In this document: positions 7,080-56,960 of the stretch, in pieces
How the letters are laid out: every line of letters begins with the position of its first letter
How positions within the stretch are numbered: the first letter of the stretch is position 1
Source: Acidilobaceae archaeon
GTDB lineage: Archaea > Thermoproteota > Thermoprotei_A > Sulfolobales > Acidilobaceae
Reading direction: 5' to 3'
DNA length: 64,000 nt
NCBI GenBank assembly: GCA_025058835.1
Contig: JANXEI010000001.1
Span: 42,311 to 106,310 of the forward strand
Made by a program: the position numbers and the translations under genes
Notes under the pieces: generated by a model
The model's input: only the letters and a program-made list of their open reading frames with translations
What the model was told of the DNA's origin: nothing
Database searches by the model: none

Positions 7080-7088
7080 CCTACCTCA

Positions 7089-8504
7089 CTATATGGGCAG
7101 CTGACCCTCCTTCCAGGTCTCCCTTATCCAGTTGTATGCCATCGTGGGCTCAGCAGAACCCTCCCACCCCTCGGGCACAGTTATCCTCTCTATGGGTATC
7201 CTTATGGGATCTGCCAGGACGTTGAAGCCGAGCCTCCTGTCCACTCTGCTTATACCAACTATGGCGTTCTTGTAGCCCTGGTGCTTGTTAGGCCTCCTCG
7301 CCCTTATCGTCAATATGCCTGCAGGGCCATATATGGCTCTTCCCTCCACGAACTTGATCAGCTCATCTGCCTCCGGCCACTTGCCCAGGGCAGCATAGGC
7401 AGCCTCCACTGCGGCCTTGTATAGGTAGACAGCAGTGTATGCGCCCTCGCTGCCGTTAGTGGGAAACTCGCCGTACTTCTGGTTGTACCTCGTGACGAAC
7501 TGGCGGTTTATGGGGAAGCTCTCGTGCTCAGGATAAAGGAAGTAGTAGTTGGCGTGAACGCCTGCCACGAAGCCCTCCGGGTAATCTGCCCCCACCAGGT
7601 GGGGCGCTATGCCGTGACTGATAGTCGAAGCCATCTTTGCGGTCTTGAAGAGGCCGTAGGCGAGGGCTTGCTTGTAGAAGTTTATGAAGTCAGCTGCCCA
7701 GAGGGAGGAGGCTATTATGTCTGCCTTGCTCTCTATCATCCTCGTTATAATTGCTCCGAAGTCTGTGACCGCGAAGAGCCTCGGCCAGAACTCGCCCACT
7801 ACCTCCACCCTGTCCTTCCCGAGCACCTTCTCGAAGACTATTTGCATGTGAGCTTGGGCGTTCCTGCCATATGCATAGTCAGGATGGATGTGGGCTATCC
7901 TCACCTTGTCCTTCTCTAGCAAGTTAAGGAACTTTATGGCCCCTACGGCAGCGGCTATGCCGTCAGCAGACTGGATGTTGGTGATCCTGAAGGAGAACTT
8001 TGGGTCAGGCACGCTCTTCTCGAAGAGCAGGTCGGTGCAACCATCTACGAAGAAGGACGGTATGCCTGCTTCCTCTGCTACCGGCGCTACCGCGGGAGTG
8101 TTGCCAGAGCTAATGAGGCCTACATATGCCTCCATTCCCTCGCCTATCATTGCCTTGTACTCCCTTACCGTCTCGTCGGGGGAGGTCTCGTCCTTTACTA
8201 TGGGCTCTATCTTCCTCCCGAGTATCCCTCCTGCGGCGTTGATCTCTTCTATTGCCAGCATGGCGCCCTTGAAGGTGGGGTCCCCCCACGGAGCCCCGCC
8301 GCCCTTTGTCATGAACTGCACGCCCATCTTGATGGGCTTGGCAGGCACGGGCTCCTTCACGGGCGTGGGCTGCTGCCCCAGATCTCTCCTCAACCAGTCT
8401 GGGGCAGCAATGTAGATCCCGAGCGCTGTAGCAGCGCTCCCCAATAGAACGCCTCCGATCAAGCCCCTTATAAAATCTCTGCGCGAAAGTTGCAAGGAGC
8501 CCAC
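7089..8504 (-). CDS. Liv-type (type I periplasmic-binding fold) substrate-binding protein with a twin-arginine signal peptide
   Basis: The N-terminus contains SRRDFIRGLIGGVLLGSAATALG (Tat consensus S/T-R-R-x-F-L-K plus an h-region). The body has LivJ/K-like motifs (GAMLAIEEINAAGGILGRKIE). It is the first gene of the liv operon. Confidence 0.8.
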   Translation of the reverse strand: MGSLQLSRRDFIRGLIGGVLLGSAATALGIYIAAPDWLRRDLGQQPTPVKEPVPAKPIKMGVQFMTKGGGAPWGDPTFKGAMLAIEEINAAGGILGRKIEPIVKDETSPDETVREYKAMIGEGMEAYVGLISSGNTPAVAPVAEEAGIPSFFVDGCTDLLFEKSVPDPKFSFRITNIQSADGIAAAVGAIKFLNLLEKDKVRIAHIHPDYAYGRNAQAHMQIVFEKVLGKDRVEVVGEFWPRLFAVTDFGAIITRMIESKADIIASSLWAADFINFYKQALAYGLFKTAKMASTISHGIAPHLVGADYPEGFVAGVHANYYFLYPEHESFPINRQFVTRYNQKYGEFPTNGSEGAYTAVYLYKAAVEAAYAALGKWPEADELIKFVEGRAIYGPAGILTIRARRPNKHQGYKNAIVGISRVDRRLGFNVLADPIRIPIERITVPEGWEGSAEPTMAYNWIRETWKEGQLPI

Positions 8505-9208: not shown

Positions 9209-9922
9209 TTACTTTACCTCCACGCAGAGCTCTCCCTTCTCGCCCAGCCATGCTTCCTCTATGTCCAGCAGGTGCTCGAACTCCCCCCTGCTCCTCCTCC
9301 TCCCCCGCAGGCAGAGCCTCTTCTCCATGAGGGGCGAGTCTATGACCAGGGTCTCTGCCTCCCCTCCCTCGAAAGAGGGGTTGAAGCCGTGCCTGCGGGA
9401 GAGAGCAATGATCCTCTCTGCCTCCTGAGGCCCTATGGGAACGCCGACCATGCTCGGCGGGAGCCCTAACGTGGTGGCGCTGACGATCACGTAGCTGAAG
9501 CCCTCCCTCCCCAACCTCCTGAGGTGCTCCTCCTGATCTGCGCCCCACAGGGGGAGCTCTAGCCCCACCCCCAGCTCCCTGCTCACCCTCTCCAGCCTCT
9601 CCCTCTGGTACCTGCTGGCAATGGCCCCCGCTACTAGGACCTCGAACCTCGCCTCCCTCCTCACCCGCTCTAGCTCTGACAGGAGCTCCTCCACCTCCCT
9701 CTCCTTCTCCCCTGAGACCTCCGCGAAGAAGGCCCTGTCCTCGAGCCTCATGGCCTTGACCTGAAGCCTGACGAGCCCTACGGCTGGGTAGTGGAACATC
9801 CAGCTGTCCTCCCTCCTCGGCATAGCGGTGAAGGTACACGCTATCTCGTAACCCTTCCTCGCGACTAGGTAGAGGGCATAGTTGCTGTCCTTCCCCCCCG
9901 AGAGGAGGGCGCACGCTCTCAT
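9209..9922 (-). CDS. PP-loop ATP pyrophosphatase domain protein (DUF71 / diphthine-ammonia ligase Dph6-like)
   Basis: Starts MRACALLSGGKDS (SGGxDS PP-loop). The start was moved to ATG 9922, which forms an ATGA overlap with the upstream ORF's stop. Confidence 0.65.
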   Translation of the reverse strand: MRACALLSGGKDSNYALYLVARKGYEIACTFTAMPRREDSWMFHYPAVGLVRLQVKAMRLEDRAFFAEVSGEKEREVEELLSELERVRREARFEVLVAGAIASRYQRERLERVSRELGVGLELPLWGADQEEHLRRLGREGFSYVIVSATTLGLPPSMVGVPIGPQEAERIIALSRRHGFNPSFEGGEAETLVIDSPLMEKRLCLRGRRRSRGEFEHLLDIEEAWLGEKGELCVEVK

Positions 9923-20504: not shown

Positions 20505-20574
20505 GGCTCTCTCCTATTTACGGCCGTGAATATTAAGCCTTTTAGCTTTTTATGGCTGTAAACATCGGGGCGCT

Positions 20575-20886
20575 ATGGAGACGAAGGCTCTGGAGAGGCT
20601 GAGGAGGAAGATCACGCTGGAGAACCTCTGGATGTACGTGGTGAAGATACTTGCAGAGGAGGGGCCGCTCAGGGGGTACGAGGTGAAGAAGAGGCTGGAG
20701 GAGCGCTACGGCATAAGGCCCGCCACGGTAACGGCTTACGTGGTGCTCTACAAGATGAGCAGGGAGGGGCTGATAGAGGCCGTGAGCCTCGGGGGGGACA
20801 CCCTCTATAGGCCCACGGAGAAGGGGCTCAGGGCCCTGGAGGAGGCGAGGAAGATACTGGAGTGGGCTAGCAAGAGCATCTCATGA
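20575..20886 (+). CDS. PadR-family winged-helix transcriptional regulator
   Basis: 103 aa with LWMYVVKILAEEGPLRGYEVKKRLEERYGIRPATVTAYVVLYKMSREGLIE, which is a typical PadR core. Confidence 0.75.
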   Translation: METKALERLRRKITLENLWMYVVKILAEEGPLRGYEVKKRLEERYGIRPATVTAYVVLYKMSREGLIEAVSLGGDTLYRPTEKGLRALEEARKILEWASKSIS

Positions 20887-20892
20887 AGCTTG

Positions 20893-20911
20893 TTTATAAA
20901 TATCTGTAGCA
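20893..20911 (+). promoter_or_regulatory. Promoter: TATA box TTTATAAA + 5 nt + GTAGCA (copy 1, upstream of the wHTH gene)
   Basis: Exact string tttataaa-tatct-gtagca at 20893-20911. The same architecture recurs at 21324 and 22042. Confidence 0.6.
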
Positions 20912-20968
20912 GATTATACATGAATTTATTACCACTGGAGGTGGGTGTAATCGGCGGGTGCACATTAT

Positions 20969-21316
20969 GTGACTTCCCGAAGTCAGGAAGGTCCTGTGAA
21001 AACATCAACCCGCGAGTGCGAGAACGACTCTCCGGAGAGGAGCCTCCTCCGCAGCCTGTTCCTCAGCCTGGAGGACGACCTCCGCATGTCGGTGCTGAGG
21101 GTCCTGACAGAGAATAGCGGCGACGGCCTCTCCTTGAGGGGACTGCAGCGAAGGCTCAGGGTGAACCACCAGCGCTTGGCGAGGGCTCTCGCAGCCCTCG
21201 AGATGGGTTCCCTGGTGGAGGTGTCGCCGATGAAGGTGGAGAGCAGGGTATACAGGATGTACAAGCTGAGCGATAACACGAGGGAGGTCCTCGAAAGCCT
21301 CTTCCGCTGCCGCTGA
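20969..21316 (+). CDS. Small winged-helix (ArsR/TrmB-like) DNA-binding protein
   Basis: 115 aa with MSVLRVLTENSGDGLSLRGLQRRLRVNHQRLARALAALEMGSLVEV, an HTH plus wing pattern. The true start may be an internal Met. Confidence 0.55.
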   Translation: MTSRSQEGPVKTSTRECENDSPERSLLRSLFLSLEDDLRMSVLRVLTENSGDGLSLRGLQRRLRVNHQRLARALAALEMGSLVEVSPMKVESRVYRMYKLSDNTREVLESLFRCR

Positions 21317-21323
21317 ACGCCTG

Positions 21324-21342
21324 TTTATAAACTTTTGTAGCA
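21324..21342 (+). promoter_or_regulatory. Promoter: TTTATAAA + 5 nt + GTAGCA (copy 2, upstream of secreted paralog 1)
   Basis: Exact string tttataaa-ctttt-gtagca at 21324-21342. Confidence 0.6.
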
Positions 21343-21425
21343 AGCGCTAATTCTCTTTCTTCTCTTCCCGTTACCCCTACTCACAAAAGGAAAAACGTAA
21401 CGGCTGCTCCCTTTCTCGTGAAGCG

Positions 21426-21965
21426 GTGAGAGCGTTGAGAAGGCTCACAGCAGACAGGAGAGTCCTTGCTGCCATAGCTCTGCTAGGCCTCCTGCTGGTA
21501 GGGCTGGGAGCATACGCCATCTTCCGCGAGGTTCTCAGGGCGCCCATCCAGGTGGAGACGGGTAGATTTGACTTCGACATTCAAAATGTAGAGATAGAGG
21601 AATTCGCTGGAAACCAGCCTGAGAACCCAAACATTGCCGAGTGTACCTACTCCATAGCGCCGAACGGCAAGATCGTGCAGATCAGCATATCCAACGCTTA
21701 CCCAGGGTACCGGTGCGAGATCACCCTAGTCTTCATCAACGACCCTGCGGAGAGCAGCATCCCTGGTAGGTTCGAGGCGAGGCAAGTCATAGGGAGCCCG
21801 GCTGACTGGCTAAGCATTACCTATCAAGACCCCGATCCAAACGTCATGATTGTCGAGGGTGGCACGGCCCAGGCAAAGATTATAATAGAGGTTACGGCTC
21901 AAGCTCCGGAAAACGGGAGCAGCAGCTTCACGGTTGATTACACGTTCCGCCAGTACCTGCCCTAA
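21426..21965 (+). CDS. Secreted protein, paralog 1, with TasA/camelysin-like (SipW-type signal plus beta-sandwich) features
   Basis: Signal anchor LLGLLLVGLGAYA then IFREVLRAPIQVETGRFDF, followed by NAYPGYRCEITLVFIND and C-terminal FRQYLP. Clearly paralogous to 22095..22661. Confidence 0.6.
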   Translation: MRALRRLTADRRVLAAIALLGLLLVGLGAYAIFREVLRAPIQVETGRFDFDIQNVEIEEFAGNQPENPNIAECTYSIAPNGKIVQISISNAYPGYRCEITLVFINDPAESSIPGRFEARQVIGSPADWLSITYQDPDPNVMIVEGGTAQAKIIIEVTAQAPENGSSSFTVDYTFRQYLP

Positions 21966-21996
21966 AGCCCTCCTCTAACGTCCCCCAAGCCCCTCC

Positions 21997-22004
21997 TTTT
22001 TCTT
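21997..22004 (+). terminator. Oligo-T stretch downstream of paralog 1 (archaeal-type terminator candidate)
   Basis: tttttctt lies 32 nt after the stop codon and before the next promoter copy. Confidence 0.35.
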
Positions 22005-22041
22005 GCATCTCCTTCAGCAACTCCCGAGAGCCCTCCAGCTC

Positions 22042-22060
22042 TTTATAAAGGCCCGTAGCA
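22042..22060 (+). promoter_or_regulatory. Promoter: TTTATAAA + 5 nt + GTAGCA (copy 3, upstream of secreted paralog 2)
   Basis: Exact string tttataaa-ggccc-gtagca at 22042-22060. Confidence 0.6.
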
Positions 22061-22094
22061 CCAGCTCCCAGAAGGATATATTAAAGTGTAGTGT

Positions 22095-22661
22095 ATGAGC
22101 GCAAAGACACTTCCCTATCTTCCTCCCCTTACTATGCGACCAGCCATGAAAGAGGTAAGAAACAAGAGGCTAGTCCTGGCAGGCCTGGTGGTGCTGGCCC
22201 TGCTCCTGGCAGGCACGGCAGCCATCGCCATTTTCCAAGAGACACTCAGGGCATTAATAAACGCGCAGACGGGTAACTTCGACATAGTGCTCGCGGGCTT
22301 CACAATGACGGTTGACAACGAGCCTCCAGATGGCCCAAACATCGCTAGCTGTTCAGCCTCGCTCAACAACAACAACCCTAGGGAGGTCTCAGTTCTGATA
22401 CAAAACGCATACCCAGGATACAGTTGTAAGGTCAGCATATTTGTGGTAAACACAGGTACCATTCATGCAAGGTTCGAGAATTACAATGTTGATCCCAGCA
22501 GTCCTGCCCTGTCAGTTGAGATTTTGCAAGCCCCTGCCGGTCCAATAGCTCCAAATAACCAGGCCCCGGTAGATTTTAAAATCACCGTAACGAACCAGGC
22601 GGTGGAGAACGCTCAGTACAGCGTCACCCTAAATCTCGTCTTCAGGCAGGCCCTACCATAG
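22095..22661 (+). CDS. Secreted protein, paralog 2, TasA/camelysin-like
   Basis: LALLLAGTAAIA then IFQETLRALINAQTGNFD, followed by NAYPGYSCKVSIFVVNTG and C-terminal FRQALP. The start may be an internal Met (MRPAMKEV). Confidence 0.6.
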   Translation: MSAKTLPYLPPLTMRPAMKEVRNKRLVLAGLVVLALLLAGTAAIAIFQETLRALINAQTGNFDIVLAGFTMTVDNEPPDGPNIASCSASLNNNNPREVSVLIQNAYPGYSCKVSIFVVNTGTIHARFENYNVDPSSPALSVEILQAPAGPIAPNNQAPVDFKITVTNQAVENAQYSVTLNLVFRQALP

Positions 22662-22688
22662 CAGCCTTAGCGGCATCTATAACCTCTC

Positions 22689-22694
22689 TTTTTT
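22689..22694 (+). terminator. Oligo-T stretch downstream of paralog 2
   Basis: tttttt lies 28 nt after the stop codon. Confidence 0.35.
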
Positions 22695-22784
22695 CCCTCC
22701 TCTTCTGCTTGTACTTATACCTCCTGTCGCGCTTGTCGCAGCTCCTTTTTACCATTGGAGCGTGAGCTTAGCTTGTGAGGAGAA

Positions 22785-23225
22785 ATGTCCCCCCCGAGAT
22801 TTGCGTTGGTACTGGCAGCAATGGCCCTCCTCTCCCTCCTCTCTGCCTCCCTCTTCCACGAGACCCTCTCAGCCTCCTTACAGGCCAGCATAGGCTACAT
22901 CAACGTTAGACTACAGAACGCCGTGGTGGTGGAGGGAGTAAACGTGTGCACCGTAACCGAGGTGAGCGACGAAATAGTCTATGTGGACGTGAACGGGCAG
23001 AGCGGTGATGAGTGCGTCATTGAAGTAGTCGCGCAAAACAGCGGCACCGTGCCTGCCCGGCTGAGCGGAGTGGATTCGGGCGTTGAAGAAGTTCAGGGCG
23101 AGAATGTGGAAGATGGGACTGTGCTCCCCGGTAGCTCTGGAACGGTGAAGTTCCGCCTGAAGTTCCTTCAAAACTATCAGGGTACAGTTGAGGCATTCCC
23201 CCAATTTGTCATGGGACCGCCGTAA
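22785..23225 (+). CDS. Secreted protein, divergent paralog 3 of the same family
   Basis: The signal LLSLLSA then SLFHETLSASLQASIGYINV parallels IF(R/Q)E(V/T)LRA...TG.F of paralogs 1 and 2. It also has DECVIEVVAQNSGTVPARL. Confidence 0.5.
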   Translation: MSPPRFALVLAAMALLSLLSASLFHETLSASLQASIGYINVRLQNAVVVEGVNVCTVTEVSDEIVYVDVNGQSGDECVIEVVAQNSGTVPARLSGVDSGVEEVQGENVEDGTVLPGSSGTVKFRLKFLQNYQGTVEAFPQFVMGPP

Positions 23226-23258
23226 GCATATAGGAGCTCCCCCTCTAACTTCAGCTGG

Positions 23259-23306
23259 ATGATGTGAGCCACAGCCCCGAGCGGTGAGGAGGGCTCGTGT
23301 TCCTGA
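23259..23306 (+). ncRNA. Candidate C/D-box sRNA
   Basis: ATGATGT (C) + 12 nt + CGAG (weak D') + 2 nt + GTGAGGA (weak C') + 12 nt + CTGA (D). Both guide spacers are 12 nt. The D' and C' boxes are imperfect and no terminal stem was seen. Confidence 0.25.
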
Positions 23307-23370
23307 CAATAATACTTTCGTAAGACTGCCTCCTCCCTTGCTTAGTGCCCCCAGCCCCTAGCTCCTGCCG

Positions 23371-53917: not shown

Positions 53918-54691
53918 GTGATCGCTGTCATAAGCGACGTGGACGGCAGCATGATCGACGAGAAGGGGAGGGACGAAGGGGTAAAGGAGTCCTTGGAGCT
54001 GCTCTCCTCCCTGGGCATAAAGGTGGCCCTAGCTACCACGAAAACGGCAGCAGAGACGAAGGAGCTGTGGCGCAGGGTGGGAGCGGGGGAGCTGCTGGCA
54101 GCGGTAGAGCTGGGAGGAGCCCTTTGCTCTAGCTCCCCTCTCCCATACTCAGACTTCGAGGAAGGAGGCCTGGAGTGCCTCCTGCTCGGCTCGCCCATAG
54201 CTGAGTTCGAGGAGGAGATGGAGAGGGCCCTCGAGGGCTGCAGCTACGTGAGGCTCTCCAAGGCCACCCCTGCCCAAGCCTCAGAGATACTCGGCTTCCC
54301 CGAGGAGCTTGCGGCGCTCGCCGTTAGGAGGCAGCTCGTGGAGGTGATATGGAGCAGAGATCTCTCGTGCCTCCTCTCGCGGGTTGGGGAGCTCGAGAAG
54401 AGGGGGCTCAGGGCGATAGCCGGCTACCGCTTCCTGCACGTAGGGAGGCATGAGGGGAAGGGGAGGGCTATGGAGCTCATGAAGGCGCTGCTGCGTGCGA
54501 GGAAGTACATAGCTATAGGGGACTCGCCGCTGGATCGGGACATGCTGGAGATGGCTGACGTAGCCATAGTGATCCCGCGGGACGGCATGATAGACGTGAG
54601 GCCCAGGCGGGCTGACTACATAGTAGCCCCATACCCGGCGCCGCAGGGCTGGGTCTGGGCGAGCAGGCAAATAGCGCTCTCCCTCATCTAA
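53918..54691 (+). CDS. mpgP: Mannosyl-3-phosphoglycerate phosphatase (HAD superfamily)
   Basis: HAD motif I VISDVDGSM and a later GDSPLDRDM; immediately downstream of mpgS. Confidence 0.75.
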   Translation: MIAVISDVDGSMIDEKGRDEGVKESLELLSSLGIKVALATTKTAAETKELWRRVGAGELLAAVELGGALCSSSPLPYSDFEEGGLECLLLGSPIAEFEEEMERALEGCSYVRLSKATPAQASEILGFPEELAALAVRRQLVEVIWSRDLSCLLSRVGELEKRGLRAIAGYRFLHVGRHEGKGRAMELMKALLRARKYIAIGDSPLDRDMLEMADVAIVIPRDGMIDVRPRRADYIVAPYPAPQGWVWASRQIALSLI

Positions 54692-56570: not shown

Positions 56571-56960
56571 ATGCGGGAGGAGAAGGGAGAGATGAGTTAC
56601 CGGGACCCAGAGATCGTGAAGAAGATGACGAGGCTAGTGGCTGAAGGGGCTGTGATGCTTGCAGAAATGTGCCCTCTCGACGGCCTACCCCTCTTCAAGC
56701 TAAAGAGCGGGGAAGTTGTCTGCCCCTCCCACGGCAAGGTTCACATAGTGAAGAGCGAAGAGGAAGCGGTGGAGGTGGAGGTAGAGTACTTGCTTAGGGA
56801 CATCTTGAGGGCCGCGGTGAGGAGGGCGAAGGAGGCTGTGGAAGAAGAGGACGCGGAAGAGGCGCTCCGCTGGCTCTCGGTAGCAGAGGCTGCAGGCAGG
56901 ATCAGGGCCCGGCAGGAGAAGGGGGAGGAGAAGGCGCGAGAGGGGACAAAGCAAAGTTAA
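56571..56960 (+). CDS. UPF0148 / Sjogren's-scleroderma autoantigen-1-like zinc-ribbon protein
   Basis: Starts at ATG 56571 (MREEKGEMS). LAEMCPLDGLPLFKLKSGEVVCPSHG is followed by an acidic coiled-coil tail. The upstream part of the track ORF is antisense to the previous gene. Confidence 0.5.
   Translation: MREEKGEMSYRDPEIVKKMTRLVAEGAVMLAEMCPLDGLPLFKLKSGEVVCPSHGKVHIVKSEEEAVEVEVEYLLRDILRAAVRRAKEAVEEEDAEEALRWLSVAEAAGRIRARQEKGEEKAREGTKQS

Follow-up and report, generated by a model that had tools for sequence, protein, structure and literature searches.

Within a 64 kb stretch of DNA from an Acidilobaceae archaeon (the window, i.e., the whole stretch that was analyzed), neighbouring genes are preceded by the same short module, which consists of the AT-rich box TTTATAAA, exactly five variable nucleotides and the hexamer GTAGCA. 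The question raised by this locus is whether the module is a regulatory element and, if so, which protein reads it. The locus comprises, in this order, a minus-strand gene for myo-inositol-1-phosphate synthase, a PadR-family regulator gene, a gene for a small winged helix-turn-helix (wHTH) protein, three paralogs predicted to encode fibre subunits, and reverse gyrase. The module is a real cis-element that is specific to this cluster within the DNA examined. With about an even chance of being right, we propose that the modules combine strong core promoters with an operator located at approximately -18 to -3, which would be bound by a dimeric winged-helix regulator, most likely the autoregulated wHTH protein.

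An exact search of the window for the complete pattern, TTTATAAANNNNNGTAGCA, returned three matches, all on the plus strand and at the positions given in the initial annotation: P1 (TTTATAAA-tatct-GTAGCA, 20893-20911), which precedes the wHTH gene as had been stated, P2 (TTTATAAA-ctttt-GTAGCA, 21324-21342), which precedes paralog 1, and P3-distal (TTTATAAA-ggccc-GTAGCA, 22042-22060). The motif begins 7 nt after the PadR stop codon, 8 nt after the wHTH stop codon and 77 nt after that of paralog 1, respectively. Against these three matches, 100 dinucleotide-preserving shuffles yielded 0.00 matches to TTTATAAA-N5-GTAGCA. The octamer TTTATAAA occurs three times in the 64 kb of 60% GC, each time at a module, and GTAGCA alone occurs nine times per strand, which is roughly what the composition predicts. 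Allowing up to three mismatches to the module adds a single match at 22031-22049, which is an artefact that arises because the palindromic TATA box can also be read on the reverse strand, and the earlier statement that the combined motif is found nowhere else in the window is thereby borne out. The number of modules has to be corrected from three to four, as a relaxed scan of both strands (128 kb) for an 8-mer with at least seven A/T, followed by N5 and GTAG, gave five matches, of which four lie inside about 370 nt of cluster intergenic DNA and only one lies outside the cluster, at 9214 on the minus strand. The fourth module, P3-proximal (GATATATT-aaagt-GTAGTG, 22075-22093, plus strand), is located 33 nt downstream of the third site. 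A degenerate version before paralog 3 does exist (ACTTATAC-ctcct-GTCGCG, 22713-22731, plus strand, read from the sequence); when read as cttatacc-tcct-gtcgcg, as it had been recorded, it has a spacer of 4 nt. A closer AT-rich box, CTTTTTAC, is present there at 22745-22752, 40 nt ahead of the ATG.

The specificity of the element extends beyond the exact pattern. When the 40 upstream regions longer than 35 nt were compared, five of which belong to the cluster, a GTAGC element at the module offset was found in none of the 35 regions outside it (read by eye, tRNA-adjacent promoters included). Within all DNA covered, i.e., the window, a 3.7 kb extension of it (L033) and about 30 kb from two related species, the motif is specific to the cluster. 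A general "GTA at -17" promoter feature, to which the PadR and inositol-phosphate synthase promoters had pointed, was also considered and was rejected, as the other promoters of the window do not have it.

The window is 100% identical to JAVQRX010000001.1 (GCA_033582155.1) over the 7.3 kb checked (L031) and 99.8% identical to GCA_026414065.1, an Acidilobaceae archaeon metagenome-assembled genome (MAG). Syntenic clusters were identified in two further Acidilobaceae species, L021 (GCA_026413755.1) and L022 (GCA_039630105.1), in which PadR is at least 90% and the wHTH protein 55% identical to the proteins of the window; the third-codon-position identity to these relatives is 0.63-0.75 for the PadR and synthase genes. 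The orthologs of P1 read TTAATAAA-gcttt-GTAGTC in L021 and ATTTAAAG-ccgct-TGAGTA in L022, those of P2 TTTATAAG-ctttt-ATAGCG and TTTAAAAG-ctcct-GTAGCT, those of P3-distal TTTATAAA-gcgcc-GTTGTG and TTTATAAC-ctgtc-GTAACT, and those of P3-proximal TATATATT-aagct-GTAGCA and ATATATTT-gagtt-GTAGCA. In L021 an extra copy, AAATATAC-actac-GTAGCG, is situated 36 nt ahead of the start codon of the wHTH gene, and the L021 counterpart of the remnant before paralog 3 reads CTTTTATT-ttcct-GTTGCA. What is kept at matching intergenic positions is thus an AT box, a spacer of 5 nt and a GTAG-like core, while hexamer positions 5 and 6 and the spacer sequence vary. In the alignment of the three species TAGC and GCT are invariant at P2, AGCT at 22063-22066 is invariant at P3-distal, where the dyad of L022 reads GTAAC-tgga-GCTAC, and ATATATT and TGTAG are invariant at P3-proximal, where both relatives have GTAGCA in place of GTAGTG. 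The hexamer itself is not invariant, as had been assumed: its position 6 is A or G among strains (22060), and the orthologous hexamers include GTAGTC, ATAGCG, GTTGTG, GTAGCT, GTAACT, and TGAGTA. The constrained core is (T)GTAGC and not GTAGCA, with a weaker inverted partner 4 nt downstream. A stronger argument than this footprint is that the architecture recurs at four non-homologous positions in each of the three genomes.

The core and its partner together form an imperfect 16-bp palindrome, TGTAGC-N4-GCTACA, of which the GTAGC side is the better half. The candidate operator dyads on the plus strand are TGTAGC-agat-TATACA at P1 (20905-20920), TGTAGC-aagc-GCTAAT at P2 (21336-21351) and CGTAGC-acca-GCTCCC at P3-distal (22054-22069). 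At all three exact modules the right half matches GCTACA at four of six positions, and among the spacers of 0 to 10 that were compared this holds solely for N4; summed over the three sites, the right-half matches amount to 12/18 at N4 versus 2-7 at the other spacers. Four of six is reached by 5 of 127 control GTAGC sites in the window, and at P2 and P3-distal all three species share the GCT of the right half. The dyad may be regarded as moderate evidence for the operator of a dimeric regulator. At P1 it constitutes the centre of a longer imperfect inverted repeat (20891-20908/20917-20934). The 44 bp from 20891 to 20934 form an imperfect palindrome, TGTTTATAAATATCTGTA/TACATGAATTTATTACCA, which gives a mirror-image module, GTAATAAA-ttcat-GTATAA, on the minus strand and facing the PadR gene; its right-hand box, ATTTATTA, is kept in L021 and in L032, a 95% identical strain (ENA ERZ17861333, a 993-nt contig). 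As a search pattern the dyad turned out to be unspecific and was abandoned: a match with at most one mismatch at 56880 has no TATA box ahead of it, and another match lies at 54023.

The protein that would bind such an operator is most likely encoded between P1 and P2. The wHTH gene (20969-21316, plus strand) encodes 115 aa from a GTG at 20969, a start that aligns in three species, with the Shine-Dalgarno-like motif GGGTG at 20956-20960. A leaderless overlapping open reading frame (ORF) from the ATG at 20920 was considered and dropped, since it is the wHTH frame that is conserved in the three species. The AlphaFold2 model of the protein, with a predicted local distance difference test (pLDDT) score of 81, has four helices, a beta wing and a further helix, and its best fold matches are ArsR, MarR and YodB repressors, with ArsR 6j05, AbfR 5hli and YodB 5hs7 as the top matches in Foldseek (E 2e-4 to 5e-4, prob 1.00). 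A profile match to ArsR 2oqg was obtained at E 4.5e-4, and the Pfam families MarR_2 and HTH_20 are both matched under their curated cut-offs, so that the membership in ArsR/MarR holds at the superfamily level alone. The protein is therefore modelled as an ArsR/MarR-like winged-helix protein with flanking helices that could mediate dimerization. Its distribution is narrow: a single-sequence query of genome contigs gave no matches, an alignment query found among species-representative genomes only the same two relatives, and in these three Acidilobaceae species the gene always lies between P1 and P2, beside the paralogs. The helix-turn-helix (residues 52-74, DGLS.RGLQRRL.VNH.RL.RAL) shows almost no variation between the three species. 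Two distant wHTH relatives, metagenome proteins of 33-35% identity (L027, L028), have no AbpX-like genes and no motif nearby, and likewise neither linkage nor motif was found at the distant AbpX-like loci L025 and L026.

We infer the activity of the promoters, the start positions, the identity of the binder and the sign of regulation from these sequence features, and in the proposed mechanism they would act as follows. TTTATAAA, which was rightly taken for a good archaeal TATA box, would be bound by the TATA-binding protein (TBP) and transcription factor B (TFB). By the textbook distance from TATA box to start the hexamer is expected at about -17 to -12, i.e., between box and start as had been supposed, and the palindrome, which follows 5 bp after the box, would span about -18 to -3, with the start itself placed by this usual archaeal distance. 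A dimeric winged-helix protein, likeliest the ArsR/MarR-like 115-aa product, would occupy the palindrome and would keep RNA polymerase from joining the complex of TBP, TFB and DNA. With the polymerase blocked, the wHTH gene and the fibre genes would be repressed jointly until a signal releases the regulator, and the predicted regulon would be small and lineage-specific, comprising the wHTH gene and the AbpX/TasA-like fibre-subunit genes. An operator that overlaps the core promoter beside the gene of its regulator is a familiar arrangement. Archaeal repressors with operators between TATA box and start include MDR1 from Archaeoglobus, Phr and LrpA from Pyrococcus, and SurR, and the same placement is seen for TrmB/TrmBL1 with the Thermococcales glycolytic motif. 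As in these systems, the operator proposed here from the sequence would lie just past the TATA box and overlap the polymerase region, and it would combine a dimeric winged-helix candidate, a (pseudo-)palindrome of about 16 bp and an autoregulated regulator gene. In contrast to MDR1, Phr, LrpA, TrmB, and SurR, the wHTH protein is not a member of any of these families at the sequence level and shows fold similarity at the ArsR/MarR level alone; to our knowledge, TGTAGC-N4-GCTACA matches no published site of these repressors.

Several observations weigh against an operator bound by the wHTH protein. The palindrome was noticed post hoc, after inspection of the data, it is weak with four of six matches per right half, GTAGC-N4-GCTAC with at most two mismatches is not enriched in the window (48 versus 35 expected), and P3-proximal, which is the best conserved GTAG site, does not have the right half. 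The orthologous hexamers are degenerate at P3-distal and at P1 of L022, and about 46% of the P2 alignment columns are invariant anyway, as the three species are only moderately diverged, which makes the footprint by itself weak. The module boxes are located farther from the start codons than usual, with other AT-rich boxes closer, and none of the RNA sequencing runs that were searched contained the locus; the organism is known from metagenome-assembled genomes alone. Finally, the preference for the wHTH protein over PadR as the binder draws solely on adjacency and distribution.

A rather unlikely alternative is that GTAGC is a core-promoter element that sets promoter strength or is recognized by the basal machinery (a TFB paralog, TFE or RNA polymerase), and that it marks a small class of strongly expressed, leadered genes. 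The 5-nt spacing, kept in the four modules of the window and in nine or ten in the relatives, would fit coupling to TBP/TFB, the best conserved positions are asymmetric, and P3-proximal keeps TGTAG without a palindromic partner. Short elements at a fixed distance past the TATA box are known, such as the Sulfolobus proximal promoter element, which is A/T-rich, generic and located at -12 to -1, and the eukaryotic downstream B recognition element. GTAGC resembles them in this fixed distance, but unlike the proximal promoter element it contains G/C, it would lie further upstream (-17 to -13) and it belongs to one cluster in the DNA examined. We know of no element of this kind at -17 to -12 of archaeal core promoters. 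An element of the basal machinery is further disfavoured by its absence, as read by eye, from the 35 other upstream regions compared, by the dedicated regulator gene inside the cluster and by the right-half matches at N4, which are improbable by chance.

Slightly less credit is given to the possibility that promoter segments were duplicated or gene-converted together with the tandem paralogs, GTAGCA hitch-hiking along without function. Such copying has taken place to some extent. P1 and P2 are identical at 20 of 24 nt, in a stretch that takes in 5 nt ahead of the box, the sequence after the P2 hexamer resembles that after P3-proximal, and the paralogs are tandem duplicates. In contigs from three metagenomes (X3, X4, X5) position 22019, downstream of paralog 1, is joined to about 21305, i.e., to the last wHTH codons and P2, which implies that some strains carry P2 and paralog 1 as a unit duplicated in tandem. 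The copy number of paralog 1 with its promoter hence varies in the population. As the module travels with the paralogs, its exact identity derives partly from common descent or conversion, and the initial view that the identical offset is non-random is supported, but the exact three-fold identity partly reflects promoter copying. Hitch-hiking is countered by P1, which precedes a non-paralogous gene, by P3-distal, which is 67% identical to P1/P2 over 24 nt, shares the motif alone with them and has an unrelated spacer, and by the three species, which keep box, N5 and GTAG while flanks, spacer and position 6 drift. Strain variation was examined in contigs of four hot-spring metagenomes with diverged strains, over stretches of 240-260 nt. 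Around P2, 16 variable sites were listed in 251 nt and none of them falls in 21316-21348. Around P3, the listed variation is at 22053 and 22087 (both in spacers), at 22060 (position 6 of the hexamer, A/G, the variant being the majority allele in two runs) and at 22068, and none is in the boxes, GTAGC, GCT or GTAGTG. In L032, 9 nt are lost at P1 (window 20884-20900), so that the box reads TGAATAAA and is fused to the PadR stop codon, with tatctGTAGCAgat intact; this strain lost part of the box and kept the GTAGC segment, which also speaks against functionless copying. A further P1 variant reads TTACAAA-tattt-GTAGCA-gat, and from both variants it follows that P1 has retained the GTAGC segment better than the box. 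On the sequences compared, copying cannot account for the module in front of the unrelated wHTH gene, nor for the retention of the same bases amid drifting flanks. In L032 the start codon of the wHTH gene is ATG in place of GTG.

Returning to the operator, it is doubtful that the upstream PadR-family regulator or an unlinked factor binds it instead of the wHTH protein. The PadR gene (20575-20886, plus strand, 103 aa, Pfam PF03551 with E 2.1e-07), which is divergent from the synthase gene, ends 7 nt before P1, and the PadR family consists of dimeric wHTH repressors with palindromic binding sites. However, the PadR proteins of the three species have an identity of at least 90%, whereas the cluster evolves fast, and the palindrome ATGT-N8-ACAT known for PadR is not present, P1 reading cTGT-N10-ACAt and P2/P3 having nothing similar. 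PadR is also conserved beyond the cluster: 19 loci with homologs of 38-59% identity were found in metagenome contigs, none with the wHTH gene, the paralogs or the motif, and a distant homolog (L020, 38% identity) again adjoins an inositol-phosphate synthase gene. This suggests another PadR target, and PadR may regulate the synthesis of inositol phosphate, a compatible solute. Between the divergent PadR and myo-inositol-1-phosphate synthase genes (window 20505-20574), the promoters have an AT-rich box followed by GTAAAC or GTAAAT, which lie exactly 11 nt before the PadR and synthase start codons.

A slim chance is left for a dedicated promoter class, in which GTAGC, instead of being a plain repressor site, would be read together with TBP/TFB at a set distance by the wHTH protein acting as activator or recruiter, or by a specialized TFB, switching on the AbpX-like genes as a unit; the tandem modules P3-distal and P3-proximal would then, with a similarly slim chance, constitute a two-state switch before paralog 2.

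Whichever protein reads the element, the position of the boxes bears on where transcription starts. The distance from the TTTATAAA box to the start codon is 76 nt for the wHTH gene, about 100 nt for paralog 1 and 53-104 nt for paralog 2, and the nearest AT-rich box of the other genes in the window has a median distance of 35 nt. Initiation from the TTTATAAA boxes would give leadered mRNAs, with which Shine-Dalgarno-like GGTG motifs 5-9 nt before the wHTH start (conserved in four genomes) and the paralog 1 start are consistent. A possible upstream B recognition element, AGCT, immediately precedes the box at P1 and at P3-distal but not at P2, is lost in strain L032, and also stands before several other promoter boxes of the window, e.g., AGCTTAAAA and AGCTTTTTAT. 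No Rfam family overlaps the modules or leaders, and the predicted leaders fold no better than shuffled sequence (z-scores -0.4 to +0.6). It is very improbable that transcription starts from nearer AT-rich boxes and that TTTATAAA-GTAGC represents upstream sites, decoys or nothing, for which nearer boxes (AATTTATTA at 20923, kept in L021 and L032, GATATATT at 22075 and CACAAAAGGAAAAAC at 21381), the median of the other genes and the tolerance of strains for damage of the P1 box could be adduced, but no box of the window fits the TATA consensus better than TTTATAAA, which three species conserve at P2 and P3-distal, the GGTG motifs fit leadered mRNAs, and no AT-rich 8-mer (at least 7/8 A/T) lies between P2 and the paralog 1 start. 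Within the leaders, A-rich CACAAAAGGAAAAAC at 21381-21395 in that of paralog 1 and CACAAAAA or CGCAAAGA at 22100-22107 before paralog 2 are conserved in L021 (5213-5227 and 5953-5960), each 6 nt after a GTAGC-like hexamer, and this element may correspond to the region of the start site or act in the leader.

The three genes that had been described as coding for secreted paralogs encode, by profile and model evidence, AbpX/TasA-like biomatrix-fibre subunits, each with a hydrophobic helix at the N terminus. Paralog 1 (21435-21965, plus strand) encodes 176 aa from a TTG at 21435 (alternative GTG at 21426), with the Shine-Dalgarno-like GGTGA at 21425-21429. Paralog 2 (22146-22661, plus strand; longest ORF from 22095) encodes 171 aa from an ATG at 22146, the form annotated in the near-identical MAG, and is 40% identical to paralog 1. 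Paralog 3 (22785-23225, plus strand, 146 aa) is 26% identical to paralog 1 and has no intact module. A HMMER profile of the three paralogs found 606 relatives among 1.84 billion representative proteins, and a 61-sequence profile matched AbpX of Pyrodictium abyssi in the PDB (9sj2_C, E 9.6e-20), the PDB entry 9rhp_A (E 5.5e-14) and, weakly, TasA 5of1 (E 2.5e-3). The model of paralog 1 (pLDDT 92.9) consists of an N-terminal helix (residues 8-29) and a beta sandwich of eight strands, and it is this match to the AbpX structure together with helix and sandwich on which the assignment is based; a Foldseek search of the PDB with paralog 1 returned uninformative, generic beta-sandwich matches. The AbpX-type fibre protein family has been described (bioRxiv 10.64898/2026.01.04.697558). 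No gene for a dedicated signal peptidase I or a DUF5305 accessory protein was found between the cluster genes, from PadR to reverse gyrase. Distant AbpX-like loci (L025 and L026) do carry a signal peptidase I/DUF5305 accessory gene, which is common, not universal, in loci of the AbpX/TasA-like family.

The three AbpX-like genes (window 21426-23225) have a third-position G+C of 0.58-0.67 versus 0.75-0.88 in nearly all neighbours, and the PadR and wHTH genes, with 0.88 and 0.82, conform to the native style, which suggests a different codon usage or history of the structural genes. L022 is without an equivalent of paralog 2, so that the P3-type promoter there would drive a paralog-3-like gene. 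An additional, divergent AbpX-like gene of L022 (3230-3763, minus strand, profile E 7e-11) is flanked by a tRNA gene and a CBS-domain gene, and its upstream sequence, TATTTAAT-tatgg-GAGCTC, is without the GTAGC element. Before reverse gyrase a candidate C/D-box small RNA was noted at 23256-23307 (plus strand), for which the Rfam matches are sub-threshold (sR5, 29.2 bits versus gathering 40, E 3.9e-4; sR23, 23.6 bits), and it is near-identical in L022 (about 7322-7375) and conserved in L021 (about 7083-7135).

Among systems controlling TasA-family fibres, the proposed arrangement is functionally analogous to SinR at the tapA-sipW-tasA promoter of Bacillus subtilis, a small repressor encoded near the fibre genes that it controls. 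It differs from SinR in the domain of life, the promoter machinery, the fold (SinR is an Xre-type HTH protein) and the operator sequence, and no homology is implied. Small wHTH regulators are recurrent in archaeal TasA-like fibre loci (PMC9245690; PMC11821415; bioRxiv 10.64898/2026.01.04.697558): Pcal_0905 is a small wHTH protein in the ABP operon of Pyrobaculum (PMC9245690), TafB one in tat-fimbriae loci (PMC11821415), and for abpX loci "occasional transcription factors" were reported (bioRxiv 10.64898/2026.01.04.697558). As in these loci, the small winged-helix gene of the window adjoins subunit genes of the AbpX/AbpA/TasA type. Unlike in the Pcal_0905 and TafB loci, the relatives of the wHTH protein are confined to the three Acidilobaceae species plus the two distant proteins that are unlinked to fibre genes, and no gene for a dedicated signal peptidase was recognized in the cluster. 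Term searches of these three papers gave no cis-element for Pcal_0905, TafB or the regulators of abpX loci.

AbpX/TasA-like fibres have recently been recognized as material of archaeal biofilm matrices, and the same term searches of the three papers gave nothing on the control of their genes. The locus constitutes a compact and testable case: a single small regulator gene lies among four promoter modules at short distances from each other, the candidate site is defined to 16 bp, and natural variants among strains and species already reveal the bases that tolerate change. If the modules formed the dedicated promoter class considered above, they would be the first defined cis-regulatory code for archaeal biofilm-matrix genes. 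If, as proposed, the wHTH protein binds TGTAGC-N4-GCTACA, the site could be used for finding the rest of the regulon in Acidilobaceae genomes, and it would provide a first handle on how hyperthermophilic Crenarchaeota regulate matrix production.

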